This document shows positions 1 to 6,025 of a stretch of DNA of 6,025 nt, piece by piece. Position 1 is the first letter of the stretch; each line of letters opens with the position of its first letter. Under the pieces are notes generated by a model. The model saw only the letters and a program-made list of their open reading frames with translations. It had not been told where the DNA came from and searched no databases. Origin of the DNA: a virus. The DNA lies in IMG/VR virus record IMGVR_UViG_3300020030_000133, positions 1 through 6,025 of that record. One strand, 5' to 3'. Made by a program: the position numbers and the translations under genes.

Positions 1-121
1 ACCAAAGCCAAGGTAGCAACATGAGCCAAAGCCAAGGCGGGGGACAGAGTACATCCACGAGCGTTGGCGGCACAAACGACAAGCAGATCATGGACTACCT
101 CAACAAATACTATCAATGGCA
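1..121. repeat. Left copy of an exact 121-nt terminal overlap (identical to 5905..6025), marking a circular genome of 5904 nt
   Basis: Read by eye: accaaagccaaggtagcaacatgagccaaagccaaggcggggg...aaatactatcaatggca occurs at both ends of the window at offset 5904. The VP2 frame is continuous across the junction. Confidence 0.95.
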
Positions 122-737
122 GGGCGGGCAAAACGCTTTCCAAAGCAAAACGAACCGCCAAAACATGTTAATGCAGATGGGCTATAATACGCTATCAGCA
201 ATTCAGCAAGGCATTTATAACCACATCGAGAACAACGCCGCAATGCAGTACAACAGCGCAGAAGCACTGGCAAACAGACAGTTTCAAGAGCGTATGAGCA
301 GTACAGCATACCAAAGAGCCGTTGAAGATATGCGAAAAGCAGGATTAAATCCTATTTTGGCATTCGCACAAGGCGGAGCAAGCACGCCGGGCGGAGCGGG
401 CGCTACAATCACAGGCGCAAGTATGGGAATGCCAACGTCAAGCGCACTGGGAGTATCCACATTAAACGGCAACGTACCGAACAGCTATTTCAGCAAAAGT
501 GAAAGTAAGTCACAGTGGTACCAGCTAGCCGAAGCCGTAGGCAGTCAGATGAGTACAGGCTATAGTAGTCCGGTACAGTTGACAGAAGATTTGCTCAAAA
601 CCTATAAGCAGATGGAAAAGACAGAAAAAACAGTACCAACTGCGAAACCGAAAAACAAAGAAAGCAGAGCAATGAAGCCGCAGGACAAAACAGGAGCATA
701 CGGAGAGAAGAGAAAGCCGGGTGATTATCTGAAATGA
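1..737 (+). CDS. VP2: DNA pilot / minor capsid protein VP2, 3' portion (5'-truncated by the window start; same gene as 5778..6025; full gene 864 nt, 287 aa on the circle)
   Basis: The frame is open from the window start (first full codon at 3) to TGA 735..737. The track ORF 21..737 begins at an internal Met. It contains [23 protein letters not shown], which I recognise as the conserved core of gokushovirus VP2 proteins, and a Gly/Ser/Gln-rich N-terminal region. It shares an ATGA stop/start overlap with VP4. Confidence 0.85.
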
Positions 738-1753
738 GTTGTTACAAGCCGTTAATAAGGCTGTACAACCCGAATGATAAAGAACAGAGCGGGCGGGTAT
801 ATTCACTCGCCCGCTTTTCTCAGCTAAGCGGGAAACAGCTAAAATATGAAGATTTGATGTATAATCCAAAAGTCATGTTAATTCCATGCGGACAATGTAT
901 TGGATGCAGAATCAGACAACGAGAAGATTGGACAACGAGAATAGAGCTAGAAGCGCGAGACTATCCGAAAGAAGAAGTTTGGTTTATAACACTAACTTAT
1001 GACGATGAACATGTACCGGGCATGATAGTAAAAACAGGTGAAATCATGCGCAAAGTACAGTACACATGGAAGCCGGGAGAGAAGCGCCCTAGCAGTGTTC
1101 AGATTTTGCTATATGAGGATATTCAAAAGTTCTTAAAACGTCTCAGAAAGGCTTACAGGGGCAAATTACGCTATTTTGTGGCTGGTGAGTATGGAGAGCA
1201 GACAGCAAGACCGCATTATCACATGATACTATACGGATGGAGACCAAAAGACCTAGAAAACCTGTACAAAATCCATCACAACGGATACTATACCAGTAAA
1301 TGGTTAGCAGACCTATGGGGAATGGGTCAAATACAGATAGCGCAAGCAGTTCCAGAAACCTACAGATATGTTGCAGGGTACGTTACAAAAAAAATGTACG
1401 AAATAGACGGCAAGAAAGCAAATGAATACTATGAACTAGGGCAAACAAAACCATTTGCATGCATGAGCTTAAAGCCAGGACTCGGAGATCACTACTATCA
1501 AGAGCACAAAGCAGAAATCTGGCGGCAAGGATACATTCAATGCACCAACGGAAAACAAGCGCAAATTCCAAGATACTACGAAAAACAGATGGAAGCAGAA
1601 AACCCACAAAGGCTGTGGAGAATCAAACAGAACCGACAGAAAAACGCAATGAAGCAGAAGAGACTACAGTTAGAAGGTCAGGACTATAAAACCGTCCTAG
1701 AGACCAAAGAGCGTGTCACCAAAAAACAAACGAAAAAACGTGGCATTTTGTAA
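734..1753 (+). CDS. VP4: Replication initiation protein VP4 (HUH-superfamily rolling-circle endonuclease, phiX174 protein A analogue)
   Basis: 339-aa ORF. N-terminal MSCYKPL and Cys cluster PCGQCIGCR. Motif 1 FITLTY, motif 2 PHYHMILYG (HUH), motif 3 [11 protein letters not shown] (catalytic Tyr pair). Basic K/R/Q-rich C-terminus. The start overlaps the VP2 stop (ATGA). Confidence 0.95.
786..818 (+). terminator. Intragenic GC-rich hairpin followed by TTTT, about 55 nt into VP4 (candidate attenuating terminator or cis-acting DNA element)
   Basis: agcgggcg (788..795) pairs perfectly with cgcccgct (808..815). The stem can extend by G796.T807 and G797-C806, leaving the loop tatattca. It is followed by tttt (815..818). 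Confidence 0.35.
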
Positions 1754-1766
1754 TTGGTGTCACCTA

Positions 1767-1808
1767 GCCCAGTACCTATCAAGTAAGGTACTGGGCATTT
1801 TATTATTT
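1767..1808 (+). terminator. Rho-independent terminator downstream of VP4
   Basis: Perfect 10-bp stem gcccagtacc (1767..1776) / ggtactgggc (1787..1796) with a 10-nt loop, followed directly by attttattattt. It begins 14 nt after the VP4 stop codon. Confidence 0.8.
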
Positions 1809-1809
1809 A

Positions 1810-1848
1810 GCACGCACGCACGCGCGTTAAATCGCACGTGCACGCGTG
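1810..1848. other. Two perfectly alternating purine/pyrimidine (CG/CA) tracts forming an imperfect hairpin
   Basis: gcacgcacgcacgcgcg (1810..1826, 17 nt) and cgcacgtgcacgcgtg (1833..1848, 16 nt) are separated by ttaaat. The inner 8 positions pair 7/8. The second tract contains overlapping palindromes CACGTG, GTGCAC and ACGCGT. Confidence 0.6.
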
Positions 1849-1935
1849 AGGTAAAGTGAGAGAACGTTCTACCCTATAATCCCTATTCGCTACGCTTCAA
1901 GGGATAACGCTTTGCCTTTATTATATAACTTGTTG

Positions 1936-1950
1936 TAGTAGTAGTAGTAG
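1936..1950. repeat. (TAG)5 trinucleotide microsatellite
   Basis: tagtagtagtagtag read directly, preceded by ttgttg. Confidence 0.95.
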
Positions 1951-1954
1951 AGGA

Positions 1955-2120
1955 TGTGGAAAAGTTGAAAACTACTTTTTCTTTACGTTGGTACGAAGAA
2001 AAAGTAGCAAAAAGAATGTTAAAAGATTTGTTGAAAACTTGTTGAATTGTTGAAACACTCTGTTGTGCTAAAGTTTAACAATGTTGAAATGTTGAAAACT
2101 ACGTTGAAAATGTTGAAAAC
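1955..2120 (+). repeat. Array of same-orientation (T)GTTGAA(A)(A) iterons
   Basis: Exact GTTGAA starts at 1964, 2030, 2041, 2049, 2083, 2091, 2103 and 2112. Degenerate copies: tgtggaaaa at 1955, tgttaaaag at 2017, tgttgtgc at 2061. The 12-mer gttgaaaactac occurs twice (1964, 2091). Spacings within the clusters are 8-12 nt. Confidence 0.85.
1972..2007. repeat. 12-bp perfect inverted repeat (hairpin) embedded in the iteron array
   Basis: ctactttttctt (1972..1983) is the exact reverse complement of aagaaaaagtag (1996..2007). An inner cgt/acg stem (1986..1988 / 1993..1995) closes a ttgg tetraloop. Confidence 0.8.
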
Positions 2121-2157
2121 CCAATAGAAGCAGTCCGGAATCGAACGGGAAAGTCAC

Positions 2158-2204
2158 GGCCGCGCTTCGCTGGAAGTTGCGCCGCGTAGCGCGCAACAGC
2201 GGCC
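2158..2204 (+). other. GC-rich nested stem-loop element
   Basis: Outer all-GC 6-bp stem ggccgc (2158..2163) / gcggcc (2199..2204) encloses a perfect 7-bp stem gttgcgc (2176..2182) / gcgcaac (2191..2197). Several GCGC blocks allow alternative folds. It lies between the AT-rich iteron array and the promoter. Confidence 0.5.
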
Positions 2205-2208
2205 ATCT

Positions 2209-2260
2209 AATGAAAAATTTCTGCAGAAGACTTGACAATTGTAAAGAGCTGTGATATAAT
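2209..2260 (+). promoter_or_regulatory. Full-consensus sigma70-type promoter with extended -10 and an UP-like A/T tract
   Basis: TTGACA (2232..2237), 17-nt spacer, TG-n (2252..2254), TATAAT (2255..2260). The A/T tract gaaaaattt (2212..2220) sits at about -56 to -48. An 8-bp palindrome acaattgt (2235..2242) overlaps the -35. The first SD and ATG follow within about 25 nt. Confidence 0.8.
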
Positions 2261-2285
2261 AGAGTCAGAAAGAGAGGTAAGCAAT

Positions 2286-2465
2286 ATGATGTACGAATAC
2301 ACTGAAAACAAAAAGGTAAAATGGTACAGATCACCCATTGACAACAGCATAAGAATGCCTTATACTTACAACAAGAAAACGAAATTTTGGGAAAACAGAA
2401 CATGCCAACTGACGAGACAAAGAATCCACCAGCTAGAAAAAGAAAACAAAATAATGTGGATGTGA
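2286..2465 (+). CDS. Hypothetical small basic, aromatic-rich protein (59 aa), first gene after the promoter
   Basis: ATG 2286 is preceded by gagaggt (2272..2278) at 7-nt spacing. The track's TTG start at 2232 coincides with the -35 hexamer and is therefore unlikely. The stop at 2463..2465 lies 12 nt before the next start. No motif recognised. Confidence 0.5.
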   Translation: MMYEYTENKKVKWYRSPIDNSIRMPYTYNKKTKFWENRTCQLTRQRIHQLEKENKIMWM

Positions 2466-2477
2466 CAGGAGGCCAAC

Positions 2478-2861
2478 ATGAAGCACATAAACTACATAAA
2501 AGCAAACTTCGGAAAAGTAAGCGAGCACTTCAAAGCAAAAGAGTTTCAGTGCGGAGACAAAACAGAAGGGCTGCTGGTAGCAACCGAACTAATTGAAATA
2601 CTGGAAAAAATCCGAAATCACTTCAACGCACCGGTCATTATCAACAGCGGATACCGTACACCAAGCTGGAACAGCAAAGTAAACGGAGCATCAAACAGCT
2701 ATCACTGCAAAGGGATGGCGGCAGATATCGTAGTAAAAGAACACAGCAGTAAAGAAGTCGCAAAGTACGCAGATGAAATCATGGAGCAAGGCGGCGTAAT
2801 CAGATACACAAACTTTACACACATTGACGTGCGCGAAGAAAAATACAGAAAGGGGGTGTAA
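2478..2861 (+). CDS. Peptidase M15-type zinc peptidoglycan hydrolase (D-Ala-D-Ala carboxypeptidase / L-Ala-D-Glu peptidase-like fold); candidate endolysin
   Basis: 127 aa. AGGAGG (2467..2472) lies 5 nt before the ATG. Motifs: EFQC, INSGYRTPSWNSKVNGASNSYHCKGMAAD (an SxHxxGxAxD zinc-ligand motif with His76 and Asp83) and FTHIDVR (His115, Asp117), arranged as in Peptidase_M15_3-type proteins. No signal peptide or transmembrane (TM) segment is visible. Confidence 0.88.
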   Translation: MKHINYIKANFGKVSEHFKAKEFQCGDKTEGLLVATELIEILEKIRNHFNAPVIINSGYRTPSWNSKVNGASNSYHCKGMAADIVVKEHSSKEVAKYADEIMEQGGVIRYTNFTHIDVREEKYRKGV

Positions 2862-2864
2862 CCC

Positions 2865-2969
2865 ATGGCATTGATTAAGGTCAAAGACCTGCGAGAAGCA
2901 ATCCAGCTAATCAAGACGGTTCTGGAAAAGCTCGACCAGATCTACCACATCCTGAAGGAAAAGGAGTAA
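2865..2969 (+). CDS. Hypothetical 34-aa amphipathic helical peptide
   Basis: ATG 2865 is preceded by aggggg (2851..2856). It encodes MALIKVKDLREAIQLIKTVLEKLDQIYHILKEKE. It starts 4 nt after the peptidase stop, and its own stop lies 3 nt before the next ATG. It is too short for the ORF track. Confidence 0.4.
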   Translation: MALIKVKDLREAIQLIKTVLEKLDQIYHILKEKE

Positions 2970-2972
2970 AAC

Positions 2973-3194
2973 ATGGTAAACAAAACATGGAATGTGCGAG
3001 ACCAGACCGAAGAAACACTCAGATTAGAGGCCGAAAGGCTATACAAGCAGATAGAAACCGGATACAAGATGGTAAAAAAAGTGTCCAAGCTAGAAGAAGC
3101 CGAAAGGATCATTGAACGAATCTGGGTTATGAAGAAATGGGCCAACGACATCGAGCTAGAACTGCTCAGAAGGGAGTACAACAATGAAGCATAG
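2973..3194 (+). CDS. Hypothetical 73-aa charged helical (coiled-coil-like) protein
   Basis: AAGGAG (2961..2966) lies 6 nt before ATG 2973. The sequence is E/K/R/L-rich and helix-prone. Its 3' end overlaps the next gene start by 11 nt. Confidence 0.6.
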   Translation: MVNKTWNVRDQTEETLRLEAERLYKQIETGYKMVKKVSKLEEAERIIERIWVMKKWANDIELELLRREYNNEA

Positions 3195-3303
3195 GCAGAG
3201 AATGCCGGTACACACTGACAAGCGCATGTTCAACGTAACGGCACGCAAAACAAAGAGTATCAACCTCAGCCAGAAACCCATGCGGGGCGGCATCAGAATG
3301 TAA
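3184..3303 (+). CDS. Small highly basic protein (39 aa), J-like / gokushovirus ORF8-like putative DNA-condensing packaging protein
   Basis: Translated by hand: MKHRQRMPVHTDKRMFNVTARKTKSINLSQKPMRGGIRM. agggag (3171..3176) lies 7 nt before the ATG. About 11 K/R plus 2 His against 1 acidic residue. The C-terminal MRGGIR resembles, from memory, the C-terminus of chlamydiaphage ORF8-type proteins. It is positioned ahead of the VP5/VP3/VP1 module. Confidence 0.65.
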   Translation: MKHRQRMPVHTDKRMFNVTARKTKSINLSQKPMRGGIRM

Positions 3304-3315
3304 AGGAGAAAAAAC

Positions 3316-3558
3316 ATGATTCACGGATACTATGGCATCTACGACAGCGTAGCAAAGAGCTACTGCTACATCGGCGAAAACAAGAGCAACGAGACGTTTG
3401 CACGGATGTGCAATATCATGGCAAAGGACGAGAAGACGTTCCTGGGCCAGTCGCCTGAAGACTACAAGGGCTACCACATCGCAAACTTCAACGATGAAAC
3501 CGGCACGTTTGAGAGCATCGAGCCGGATAAAGTCTGGGAGGGCAAGCCGCATGAATAA
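3316..3558 (+). CDS. VP5: VP5-like non-structural protein (gokushovirus ORF5 family, tentative)
   Basis: AAGGAG (3303..3308) lies 7 nt before the ATG. 80 aa. The pattern IYDSVAKSY...ARMC...PEDYKGYHIANFNDETGTF matches my recollection of the VP5 family pattern (hydrophobic-YD-x-KA ... G-x-FD-x-x-TG). It sits immediately upstream of VP3, overlapping it, as in gokushoviruses. Confidence 0.65.
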   Translation: MIHGYYGIYDSVAKSYCYIGENKSNETFARMCNIMAKDEKTFLGQSPEDYKGYHIANFNDETGTFESIEPDKVWEGKPHE

Positions 3559-3985
3559 ACGATACGAGGAAGGGCGAGAGCCCTTCTTTTCAAATCCGGG
3601 CGAGAAACTGCGCAAACAGTACGTATGGGGCAAGGACGAAAAAGGCGAAAAAAAGCTGATTGAGACAGAGCCAATCGACATTCAGGCCGAAATCGAAAGC
3701 TATGCAGACGAATGCGACATCAAAAACATCGTCCGAAAAGCAAGCTTTGACCCTGAGTTTGCCAAAAGTCTAGCAGACAGCGCAAAAACGGATGAAGTTG
3801 TTGATATCACGGAATGGCCAACCAACATTCACGAGTATCACGCCATGATGGCAACAGCGCAAGCCAAGGCAATCGAACTGCAGAAGATGCAGGAGGAAAA
3901 GAAAGCAATCGAACAGCAGGAGACGCAGGAGGAAAATAAGGCAATCGAAACAAAGAAACAGGAGGAAAGCAATGAACAGAAATAA
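3551..3985 (+). CDS. VP3: Internal scaffolding protein VP3 (144 aa)
   Basis: The start is chosen at ATG 3551 (ggagg 3537..3541, 9-nt spacing; ATGAATAA overlap with the VP5 stop) rather than the track start 3398. IQAEIESYADECDIKNIV and DITEWPTNIHEYHAMMATAQ resemble conserved VP3 blocks. The C-terminus is acidic, Q/E/K-rich and repetitive. It overlaps the VP1 start by 14 nt. Confidence 0.8.
   Translation: MNKRYEEGREPFFSNPGEKLRKQYVWGKDEKGEKKLIETEPIDIQAEIESYADECDIKNIVRKASFDPEFAKSLADSAKTDEVVDITEWPTNIHEYHAMMATAQAKAIELQKMQEEKKAIEQQETQEENKAIETKKQEESNEQK
3869..3976 (+). repeat. Roughly 36-nt imperfect tandem repeat (three full copies plus a partial one) within the VP3 3' end and the VP1 start
   Basis: gcaatcgaa at 3869, 3905 and 3941 (period 36), then gcaatgaa at 3969. 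gcaggaggaaaa at 3889 and 3925, then acaggaggaaag at 3958. Encodes KAIELQKMQEEK / KAIEQQETQEEN / KAIETKKQEES. Confidence 0.85.
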
Positions 3986-5720
3986 TGAGCGACACTTCAA
4001 CAGTGTACCGCAGACACATGTAAGTCGAACGCGTTTCAAACGAGACCAGAACATTCTCACGACCTTCGATGCAGGAAAGCTCATTCCGTTTTACGTAGAT
4101 GAAGTTCTTCCGGGCGATACATTCAACGTGAGTACAGCGGCAATCATCCGAATGACTACACCGAAATATCCCGTTTTCGATGATGCATACATCGACTTTT
4201 ATTACTTCTTCTGTCCAAACAGGATCTTATGGGACAACTTCAAGCGTTTCATGGGAGAAGCAGACGATAGACCTTGGATGCCAACAATAACTTATGCAGT
4301 GCCAAAAATCAAAATCGCATCAAACGCAGAAACAGAAGGGCACGATAACCTGAAAGGGCCAAAAGAACAGAGCATTCTGGATTACATGGGAGTGCCGACA
4401 AAAATCAACGAAAAAGCAGGAGCCCAAGAGACGCTCATAAACGCACTGCCAATTCGAGCATATGTAAGAATTTGGAACGAGTTTTTCAGAGACCAGAACG
4501 TAGGAAATCCGGCGGCAGATTTTAAAGACGAAACATTGATACAGTATACGGACTTGAACGATGATAATGACGAAGAAGGAATTCTGAGAGATGCAGTGAG
4601 TGGTGCACGTTGTCTTCCGGTAAGTCGCTTCCACGACTATTTCTCATCCTGTTTGCCGTACCCTCAGCGTGGGCCGGAAGTGACAATCGCACTAACGGGA
4701 AATGCACCGTTAACAGCCTACAGCGAATCAGGACTGATCAACAAAAAAATAGGAACAGGATATTTCAACAACGAATATAACAGCGGAGTCGTAAATCACA
4801 CAAGCATCACATTCGGAAAATCAGGAACGAAATTCAACGTAAACCAAAACAACAACGGGAACAATGCACCGTTAACAGAAGGACAGTACATCCAGACAAT
4901 GAGCCAAGACGATGCAAACTTCCTTAACGCATGGTTAGGAACAGACCTAAGCAATATCGAAGCCGCAACCATCAACCAGCTGCGAAATGCTTTTGCAGTT
5001 CAGCACTATTACGAAGCACTGGCACGTGGCGGCAGTCGATACCGCGAACAGGTACGAGCACTGTTTGGCGTAACAATCAGCGACAAAACCGTTCAGGTGC
5101 CTGAGTATCTGGGTGGCGGACGCTATCACGTAAATATTAACCAGATCGTACAGACCAGCGGACAGCAGACCGAAAACGACACGCCAATCGGCGAAACGGG
5201 CGCAATGTCAGTAACTCCTATCAACGAAAGTTCCTTCACAAAGAGCTTTGAGGAGCACGGCTTTGTTATCGGTGTCATGTGTGTACGTCACAACCATAGT
5301 TACCAACAGGGCTTGGAACGGTTCTGGAGCCGTAGTGACAGACTAGACTACTATTTCCCGCAGTTTGCAAATTTAGGCGAACAGCCTGTCAAGAAAAAAG
5401 AAATCATGTTAACCGCAACGGCAGAAGACGACGAAACCTTCGGATACCAGGAAGCTTGGGCCGACTATCGCATGAAGCCAAACAGAGTAAGTGGTAAAAT
5501 GCGGAGCAATGCGGAAGGGAGACTCGACTTCTGGCACTATGCAGACAACTACGACACAGTGCCGACACTCAGTCAAGAGTGGATGAACGAGGGCAAAACA
5601 GAAATTGCAAGGACACTGATTGAACAGAACGAACCGCAATTTTTCGGAGCGATTCGAGTAATGAACAATACGACAAGATGCATGCCTCTCTACAGCGTAC
5701 CGGGGCTCGAGAAACTCTAA
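3972..5720 (+). CDS. VP1: Major capsid protein VP1 (Microviridae F-protein family)
   Basis: 582 aa. ggagg (3961..3965) lies 6 nt before the ATG. Hallmark blocks: FDAGKLIPFYVDEVLPGDTF, FFCPNRILWDNFKRFMGE, INQLRNAFAVQHYYEALARGGSRYREQVRALFGV and GFVIGVMCVRH. Confidence 0.97.
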   Translation: MNRNNERHFNSVPQTHVSRTRFKRDQNILTTFDAGKLIPFYVDEVLPGDTFNVSTAAIIRMTTPKYPVFDDAYIDFYYFFCPNRILWDNFKRFMGEADDRPWMPTITYAVPKIKIASNAETEGHDNLKGPKEQSILDYMGVPTKINEKAGAQETLINALPIRAYVRIWNEFFRDQNVGNPAADFKDETLIQYTDLNDDNDEEGILRDAVSGARCLPVSRFHDYFSSCLPYPQRGPEVTIALTGNAPLTAYSESGLINKKIGTGYFNNEYNSGVVNHTSITFGKSGTKFNVNQNNNGNNAPLTEGQYIQTMSQDDANFLNAWLGTDLSNIEAATINQLRNAFAVQHYYEALARGGSRYREQVRALFGVTISDKTVQVPEYLGGGRYHVNINQIVQTSGQQTENDTPIGETGAMSVTPINESSFTKSFEEHGFVIGVMCVRHNHSYQQGLERFWSRSDRLDYYFPQFANLGEQPVKKKEIMLTATAEDDETFGYQEAWADYRMKPNRVSGKMRSNAEGRLDFWHYADNYDTVPTLSQEWMNEGKTEIARTLIEQNEPQFFGAIRVMNNTTRCMPLYSVPGLEKL

Positions 5721-5747
5721 AAATAGTGCAAAATGACGAAAGGAGGA

Positions 5748-5773
5748 AGCCCGGAGAAATCCGGGCTATTTTA
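5748..5773 (+). terminator. Hairpin with GAAA tetraloop and short T-run between VP1 and VP2 (candidate partial terminator and/or RBS-bridging structure)
   Basis: agcccgga (5748..5755), gaaa, tccgggct (5760..5767): a perfect 8-bp stem followed by atttta. It starts 28 nt after the VP1 stop and ends 10 nt before the VP2 ATG. Confidence 0.55.
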
Positions 5774-5777
5774 GAAA

Positions 5778-6025
5778 ATGGCAGGATTAGGAGCAATGCT
5801 ATCAAGTGCTGGCACGTGGCTCGCAAGTCATCCAGAAATCGTAACGACAGGAATGTCACTGATAGGAAATGGCCTATCAAGCATGTTTGGACAGCATAGC
5901 CAGAACCAAAGCCAAGGTAGCAACATGAGCCAAAGCCAAGGCGGGGGACAGAGTACATCCACGAGCGTTGGCGGCACAAACGACAAGCAGATCATGGACT
6001 ACCTCAACAAATACTATCAATGGCA
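5778..6025 (+). CDS. VP2: DNA pilot / minor capsid protein VP2, 5' portion (runs off the window end; continues at position 122 of the first copy)
   Basis: ATG 5778 is the first start after the in-frame TAG at 5772..5774. Hand translation [61 protein letters not shown]... joins in frame to the 21..737 ORF through the terminal overlap. Confidence 0.85.
   Translation, partial: MAGLGAMLSSAGTWLASHPEIVTTGMSLIGNGLSSMFGQHSQNQSQGSNMSQSQGGGQSTSTSVGGTNDKQIMDYLNKYYQW
5905..6025. repeat. Right copy of the exact 121-nt terminal overlap (identical to 1..121)
   Basis: Same as for 1..121. Confidence 0.95.

Follow-up and report, generated by a model that had tools for sequence, protein, structure and literature searches.

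A core M15-type peptidase in a gokushovirus clade: a probable endolysin in genomes that encode no recognisable holin or signal peptide

The window analysed here, a 6,025-nt stretch of viral DNA (IMG/VR record IMGVR_UViG_3300020030_000133, positions 1 to 6,025), is a complete circular gokushovirus genome of 5,904 nt, since nt 1-121 are an identical copy of nt 5905-6025 and so represent an assembly overlap. It carries a gene for a predicted M15-type peptidoglycan peptidase of 127 amino acids (aa), and neither in the window nor conserved in the 136 peptidase-bearing relatives is there a holin, a signal peptide, a signal-arrest-release (SAR) domain or a membrane protein like E of phiX174. Of a canonical holin-endolysin cassette the window has the soluble enzyme without export signals but no conserved holin, and it fits neither a Sec or SAR endolysin nor an amurin of the phiX174 E type. 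We believe that the peptidase is probably a cytoplasmic endolysin of Clostridia-phage origin, which accumulates late in infection and reaches the wall by way of a non-canonical membrane lesion. The gene is of a kind already known and annotated and is not new by itself; what is added here is the complete circle, the fixation of the gene in its clade, the selection on it, the operon signals around it, a survey of all frames for membrane proteins, and the contrast with a sister lineage that lacks it.

The peptidase matches the Pfam profile Peptidase_M15_3 (PF08291) over positions 2-108 of 108 with E=5.8e-25 and 88 bits, well above the gathering cut-off of 23.2, and it matches PHROG 894, 'endolysin', with E=8e-37. 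An earlier note on this DNA, made from the letters alone, had read an M15-type zinc signature in H76, D83, H115 and D117 and had proposed a Pfam search as a check; the profile match and the invariance of these residues across homologues bear that reading out. They lie in the motifs SYH76CKGMAAD83 and TH115ID117VR, the numbering of which was verified, and the H-x6-D segment aligns with that of 1LBU, the Zn DD-peptidase of Streptomyces albus. The same four residues, together with S57 and R60 of the SxxR substrate-binding motif of the M15_3 family, are invariant in 26 close homologues as well as in nine divergent microviral and tailed-phage homologues of 36-57% identity. H76, D83 and H115 are the putative metal ligands, with D117, R60 and S57 conserved beside them. 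Solved LAS/M15 enzymes (1LBU, the Ply500 catalytic domain 2VO9, EndoT5 2MXZ, LysECD7 8Q2G and VanY) share the triad of H-x6-D plus a distal His, but at only 16-27% identity to the peptidase, so that the bond specificity (L-Ala-D-Glu, DD or LD) is not inferable from them. The AlphaFold2 (AF2) model, built from a shallow alignment, is moderate (pLDDT 70.9, pTM 0.70). With this model the top Foldseek matches are all LAS-fold proteins (Shh-N, 1LBU, VanY, Ply500, LysECD7 and EndoT5) but weak, with E-values of at least 2.6e-3 and TM-scores of ~0.5.

The gene is under purifying selection, with a median ratio of non-synonymous to synonymous substitution rates (dN/dS) of 0.125 vs 1.18 when the same DNA is read in the +1 frame. 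Pfam and homologue comparison found no structural or capsid-binding module fused to the enzyme, which is a free-standing catalytic domain. As the earlier note had stated, there is no N-terminal signal or anchor: the first 30 residues are hydrophilic and basic, no segment of 17-21 aa exceeds a Kyte-Doolittle (KD) hydropathy of -0.29, and a hydrophobicity scan found no Sec signal, SAR or transmembrane (TM) segment. Longer versions of the protein in databases (136-176 aa) were considered as carriers of hidden signal peptides and rejected; their N-terminal extensions are hydrophilic or basic, and they are most likely the product of mis-called starts.

For comparison we assembled 211 related microvirus genomes, 136 with the peptidase and 75 without it, GenBank records included; genomes of the clade of the window were recruited via the peptidase, a 73-aa protein encoded just downstream of it, or VP1 at >=66% identity. 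None of the 89 complete circular genomes of the clade lacks the peptidase, and recruitment via the VP1 or the 73-aa protein of the window yielded only three loci without it, all on truncated contigs. Since every complete genome has the gene, it is a fixed core gene of the clade and not a sporadic passenger.

In the complete peptidase-bearing genomes each + strand open reading frame (ORF) of at least 20 aa, overprinted ones included, was surveyed for hydrophobicity. At a threshold of KD >=1.6 no hydrophobic ORF recurs beyond 12 of 82 genomes. Because this threshold missed the control sequences of lambda S105 and T7 gp17.5, the survey was repeated at KD >=1.2, where only two recurrences appeared, the Gly-rich N-terminus of VP2 (29/89) and a pseudo-ORF over a terminator hairpin (16/89). 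The same scan did detect holin-like ORFs and signal sequences in Clostridia, an Rz/Rz1-like pair in a tailed phage and a TM peptide of the sister lineage, all of which are described below. Within the window, the 59-, 34-, 73- and 39-aa proteins and VP5 contain no 17-residue stretch with one charged residue or fewer, in agreement with what had been said of the first three. The earlier view that the genome has no holin, signal peptide or amurin thus survives a survey of all + strand frames, and it proves general for the clade.

The N-terminus of VP2 is read across the circular junction, the gene continuing at window positions 122-737 because nt 1-121 repeat nt 5905-6025; there it is Gly-rich and hydrophobic (MAGLGAMLSSAGTWL...) and is the only recurrent candidate for a membrane-active element. 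It had been called the only hydrophobic stretch in the genome, which holds once the junction is crossed, except that three overprinted ORFs score higher but are not conserved. Of 23 relatives, only 9 have an intact copy of an E-like ORF within VP1 (4610-4780), which has a hydrophobic N-terminus and a basic tail; a second overprinted ORF, at 5248-5346 on the + strand, is intact in 15 of 42. The third (1713-1859) is intact in 6 of 11; its conserved core 'CHLAQYLSSKVLG' is a terminator-like hairpin, stop codons follow the core in many relatives, and its apparent conservation is due to the overlapping hairpin at 1767-1806. On the other strand, a hydrophobic 145-aa ORF 5' of the peptidase (2068-2505, - strand) was reminiscent of the ORF that Roux et al., 2012 (PMC3394797) had noted on the complementary strand, but it is intact in none of seven full-length matches and owes its hydrophobicity to the T-richness of the minus strand.

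Genomes related to KT264788 have the same backbone, with VP1, VP2, VP3, VP5 and the genes for the 34- and 73-aa proteins shared between the lineages and VP1 ~55% identical to that of the window, but they lack the peptidase. What 38 of the 75 peptidase-less genomes have, and none of the 136 peptidase-bearing ones, is a conserved ORF of 32-38 aa with one clear TM helix and the tail I[DN]IIK[DEN]W (for example MNVIITVGAGATIIAMCSATFALIVMGIDIVKNWRKNK). The 32-aa variant examined has a GTG start that overlaps the stop codon of the 39-aa basic gene just 5' of VP5. For the conserved ORF the ratio of non-synonymous to synonymous polymorphism (pN/pS) is 0.43 vs 0.81 in a control frame. In the window the corresponding 39-aa gene ends in ATGTAA 13 nt before VP5, which leaves no room for such a mini-gene. 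This TM mini-protein is a candidate single-gene lysis protein, and the complementary distribution is compatible with two lysis devices that replace each other on a common backbone; such an alternation argues for a role of the peptidase at exit over one at entry. The mini-protein is encoded at 4756-4872 of KT264788 (L193), at 2265-2363 of MG945657 (L195) and at 36 more loci among L197-L259, and is unannotated in both GenBank records inspected. A single peptidase-bearing genome, IMGVR_UViG_3300045988_042857 (L129), has a small TM-like ORF (...MYICIGTAAILIAIEILTK) just 5' of VP5, in the position of the mini-protein and unrelated to it in sequence. Peptidase-less genomes without the mini-protein have a near-invariant 27-aa hydrophobic ORF with an ATG start, MLNTMNFYPWNDIFWLILMLILLWITC, in the region after VP4 (L198, L211, L216, L230, L234-L255 and others; also L195 1099-1275); it lies in an AT-rich repeat region and may be conserved at the level of DNA rather than of protein.

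The eight nearest cellular homologues of the peptidase, at 41-53% identity, are all from Clostridia (Oscillospiraceae, Lachnospiraceae, Dysosmobacter, Alkaliphilus, Clostridiaceae and Christensenellaceae), which supports the horizontal acquisition that the earlier note had mentioned for such genes. These homologues either adjoin multi-TM holin-like ORFs (L142, L145, L143) or have N-terminal signal sequences (L139, L140), and the target of the enzyme therefore lies outside the membrane. Homologues in tailed phages, 40-45% identical, are stand-alone proteins annotated as endolysins (Faecalibacterium phages FP_oengus and FP_Toutatis; K1-5). Like the peptidase of the window, the M15 endolysins of these phages, of K1-5/SP6-like coliphages and of Klebsiella and Vibrio podoviruses are single domains of ~120-135 aa that lack a signal peptide and have the same residues at the metal site. 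The difference lies in their surroundings: in the loci inspected the homologues adjoin membrane proteins, holin-like in the Clostridia prophage cassettes and Rz/Rz1-like in the tailed-phage locus L049, where the endolysin gene stands immediately 5' of the pair, whereas the microvirus gene has none. The peptidase family comprises at least 650 clusters at 90% identity (from a single-sequence query), and nearly all the matches listed come from contigs that do not exceed the size of a microvirus. A scan of genomes with the peptidase alignment found no microvirus prophage and hence gives no direct link to a host. IMGVR_UViG_3300029374_000071 (L047), a distant gokushovirus (VP1 38%), has a peptidase 55% identical to that of the window and lacks the 34- and 73-aa genes, which fits the transfer of peptidases between microvirus lineages described by Kirchberger 2022 (PMC9239249).

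That microviruses encode such peptidases had been mentioned in the earlier note, and the literature and GenBank annotations agree. Roux et al., 2012 (PMC3394797) found M15_3 peptidase genes in 11 human-associated Microviridae, 5 of them Gokushovirinae, showed that they were acquired horizontally, with four gokushoviral copies nearest to Faecalibacterium and other Clostridiales, and proposed that the enzyme dissolves the wall at the end of infection, as an endolysin. The same assignment to lysis was made by Kirchberger 2022 (PMC9239249), where peptidases are typical lysis-associated accessory genes of microviruses and overprinted genes were explicitly omitted, and by Zhang 2024 (PMC11499846). 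Among relatives in GenBank the gene is annotated as 'peptidase M15' in KX513868 and as 'similar to peptidase' in MG945447 and MG945233. The peptidase of the window agrees with the M15_3 enzymes of gut Gokushovirinae and Alpavirinae in Pfam family, virus group and habitat; it is 76% identical to the copy in KT264792 and 47% to that in KX513868, and it lies, as in the relatives mapped, between VP4 and VP5. Nothing essential distinguishes it from the gokushoviral peptidases of Roux et al., 2012, of which it is a further member, although the absence of a holin was not analysed there. The only microvirus enzyme with experimentally shown muralytic activity is Gp7 of phage Ebor (PMC11980548). Like the peptidase, Gp7 is encoded by a microvirus, and it is active on peptidoglycan, but it belongs to a family unrelated to M15_3 (HHpred 6SSC; 'lysozyme' in the methods), and Ebor differs further in its alphaproteobacterial host and in a predicted 45-aa membrane protein, Gp1.

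The signals around the gene suggest how it might be expressed. Upstream lies a promoter with 12 of 12 consensus positions (2232-2260; TTGACA, a 17-nt spacer, TATAAT and an extended TG), followed by a second promoter-like site with 11 of 12 matches at 2338-2366. Shine-Dalgarno (SD) sites of the AAGGAG/GGGGG type precede the starts of the 34-aa, 73-aa, ORF8-like and VP5 genes by 6-8 nt, and 3' of the peptidase the stop and start codons are tightly packed or overlapping. Promoter, SD sites and packed codons together suggest a single operon that would begin at the promoter, take in the peptidase and the morphogenesis genes and reach as far as VP4. Strong SD sites and consensus -35/-10 signals fit Firmicutes or Proteobacteria and not Bacteroidota. 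Gut microvirus clades are targeted by CRISPR systems of Firmicutes (PMC8530359). Because of the promoter and SD usage, the Clostridia homologues and this published CRISPR evidence, we believe that the host is probably a member of the Clostridia, of monoderm type.

Based on these observations, we propose the following sequence of events. An ancestor of the clade would have captured the peptidase gene from a Clostridia phage or prophage, after which the gene became fixed. The consensus promoter would drive it along with the morphogenesis genes, and with a strong ribosome-binding site for its translation the peptidase would accumulate late in infection. As a soluble zinc peptidase of the M15_3/LAS type it would be made in the cytoplasm and, as the lysis enzyme, would cut the stem peptides of peptidoglycan. 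Access to the wall would be through a non-canonical membrane lesion, for which the encoded candidate is the Gly-rich N-terminus of VP2 and the alternative a host-dependent leak. Two parts of this are inferred rather than observed: the action of the enzyme at exit and not at entry, and its passage to the wall through such a lesion.

Several points weigh against this proposal. The step from the cytoplasm to the wall is explained by nothing encoded in the genome: the enzyme has no signal or SAR segment, no TM ORF is conserved in any + strand frame of the 89 complete genomes even at the lenient threshold, and the hydrophobic N-terminus of VP2 is both weak (KD ~1.1) and part of a virion protein. 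The earlier note had called the route to the murein unexplained, and this was confirmed, with no conserved membrane-active partner besides the VP2 candidate. Furthermore, the peptidase model is only moderate (pLDDT 70.9) and its LAS fold matches are statistically weak; the lysis role of the microviral M15_3 family is drawn from comparison, its host being uncultured; and the complementary distribution of peptidase and TM mini-protein, which spans two clades, may reflect a single evolutionary event.

The enzyme might instead act at entry, a few virion-borne copies opening the thick wall of the Clostridia type for a tail-less particle of 25-30 nm or for a VP2 conduit, while something other than the peptidase lyses the host. 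A tail-less phage must penetrate the wall of what is probably a monoderm Clostridia host (eight homologues, promoter, SD sites and the CRISPR evidence of PMC8530359), the muralytic Gp7 of Ebor was detected in virions in trace amounts (PMC11980548), and the peptidase gene appears to be co-transcribed with structural genes. However, the enzyme is a free-standing catalytic domain with a layout identical to that of the soluble endolysins in tailed-phage lysis cassettes. The sister lineage, moreover, enters without a peptidase despite its shared virion genes and carries a lysis-type TM peptide instead, and an entry role would leave the clade without any lysis gene. We therefore consider an entry role unlikely and disfavour it.

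Slightly less likely again, in our judgement, is a partner that has escaped recognition, with the helix of the 34-aa protein, the hairpin of the 73-aa protein or a bundle of both permeabilising the membrane or chaperoning export. Neutral amphipathic lytic peptides do exist, as in staphylococcal delta-lysin and the phenol-soluble modulins (PSMs), and Gp1 of mycobacteriophage Ms6 is an export chaperone of LysA. The two genes lie directly 3' of the peptidase with coupled stop and start codons, and purifying selection acts on each: among relatives with full-length matches the 34-aa ORF is intact in 41 of 41 (dN/dS 0.111) and the 73-aa ORF in 42 of 42 (dN/dS 0.15). The 34-aa peptide is strongly amphipathic, with a hydrophobic moment (muH) of 0.68 that exceeds those of melittin and magainin in the same calculation. 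On the other hand, it is near-neutral (net charge +1), and its heptad-like pattern is more typical of a coiled-coil partner. The 73-aa protein is modelled by AF2 as a two-helix hairpin (pLDDT 92.5), but fold searches with this model found nothing beyond generic helical hairpins and uncharacterised proteins of microviruses, and no functional match. In addition, a hidden Markov model (HMM) search finds both genes in the sister lineage that lacks the peptidase, the 34-aa one recognisable there by its LDxIYH motif, and on this ground the 34-aa gene was rejected as a specific partner of the peptidase. The two ORFs are therefore real backbone genes and not dedicated peptidase partners. Of the suggestion that the 34-aa peptide disrupts membranes, made in the earlier note, the amphipathicity stands; a specific tie to the peptidase is not supported.

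Least likely of all, though with consequences of its own, is that the peptidase stays in the cytoplasm as the sole lysis gene and destroys soluble or membrane-bound murein precursors (D-Ala-D-Ala, UDP-MurNAc-pentapeptide or the stem peptide of lipid II), so that growing cells burst, an amurin that works as an enzyme. The topological paradox would vanish, with neither holin nor signal needed. The M15 clan includes VanX, which cleaves precursors in the cytoplasm, as well as VanY and the S. albus DD-peptidase, which act on the pentapeptide terminus, and the last of these is the closest solved relative of our peptidase in sequence. To our knowledge, all small phages with known lysis genes target precursor synthesis; E of phiX174, A2 of Qbeta and LysM of phage M starve wall synthesis and are the non-catalytic counterpart of this logic. 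Single-gene lysis would also suit the group, the sister lineage apparently using one small membrane protein. We know of no precedent for an enzymatic amurin, however, nothing in the sequence marks a precursor-specific pocket, and homologues of the same architecture (40-53% identity) act outside the membrane, by way of holins or signal peptides. Set beside E of phiX174 and other amurins, the window is alike in that a small ssDNA phage seems to devote a single gene to lysis and has no holin. It differs in that E, encoded by a gene overprinted in gene D, is a membrane protein that blocks MraY without being an enzyme, whereas the peptidase is a soluble hydrolase in its own frame and the window has no conserved membrane ORF.

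Gokushoviruses are among the most abundant phages of the mammalian gut, and the present result sharpens the question of how they lyse their hosts. It offers two compact candidate lysis devices, the peptidase and the TM peptide, from uncultured phages that probably infect Clostridia, either of which could be useful against gut Firmicutes. Were the peptidase to work without export, this would be a new lysis principle. An enzymatic amurin would bring catalysis for the first time into the 'protein antibiotic' strategy by which small phages lyse their hosts, and would explain why more than 130 genomes of the clade do without a holin, signal peptide or membrane protein while the sister clade has a tiny membrane peptide in its place. 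If the peptidase, as the endolysin we favour, needs VP2 or a host function, then this would be a new way of endolysin release.

The recognisable genes of the window all lie on the + strand (Table 1), and the closest GenBank records are gokushoviruses of human and pig gut with ~78% nucleotide identity.

Table 1. Features of the window (positions count from its first nucleotide).
Feature	Position	Strand	Remarks
VP4 replication initiator	734-1753	+	
Terminator-like hairpin and T-run	1767-1806	+	stem of ~10-11 bp, directly 3' of VP4 stop
Consensus sigma-70-type promoter	2232..2260	+	12/12 hexamer matches
59-aa basic ORF	2286..2465	+	variable accessory slot 5' of peptidase
Shine-Dalgarno AGGAGG	2465..2470	+	7 nt before peptidase ATG; read from sequence
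M15_3 (predicted LAS fold) putative zinc peptidoglycan peptidase, 127 aa, ATG start	2478..2861	+	PF08291, PHROG 894
34-aa amphipathic-helix protein, conserved motif LxxLDxIYH	2865..2969	+	backbone gene
73-aa helical-hairpin protein, no TM	2973..3194	+	backbone gene
39-aa highly basic protein, tentatively ORF8/J-like	3184..3303	+	by composition and position only
VP5	3316-3558	+	
VP3 scaffold	ends at 3985	+	
VP1 capsid protein	3972-5720	+	
VP2 pilot protein, 287 aa	5778..737 across the circular junction (5778..6025, then 122-737)	+	PHROG 8742; circular ORF call

The small genes around the peptidase differ in how well they are kept. The 59-aa ORF is poorly conserved, with a homologue in only 13 of 46 relatives, intact in 7, and no TM-capable stretch. 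The 73-aa protein belongs to a family of at least 5,600 clusters without a Pfam domain, and of the matches listed nearly all lie on contigs no longer than a microvirus genome. Weak Pfam and NCBIfam matches of the 34- and 73-aa proteins were dismissed as noise.

Outside the genes discussed so far, the C-terminal part of VP3 contains three tandem 36-nt repeats (3866-3966), which encode units of the form (K/E)AIE(L/Q)Q(K/E)(M/T)QEE(K/N). A search of the window against Rfam gave one match only, Termite-leu, below threshold. The hairpin at 1767-1806 has the arms GCCCAGTACC...GGTACTGGGC followed by ATTTTATTATTT, and its core is near-invariant in 41 relatives; it is terminator-like and could alternatively be a complementary-strand origin. 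A GC-rich island with evident self-complementarity (2125-2205; ggccgcgcttcgctggaagttgcgccgcgtagcgcgcaacagcggcc) lies within the otherwise AT-rich intergenic region. Finally, five exact TGTTGAAA repeats are packed on the + strand into 90 nt (2029-2118), with another copy at 1957-1972, which makes six copies in the window vs 0.32 expected by chance. This array after VP4, which reads as a pseudo-ORF 'MLKHSVVLKFNNVEMLKT...', is kept in 36 of 46 relatives and may consist of iterons or protein-binding sites, possibly related to an origin.

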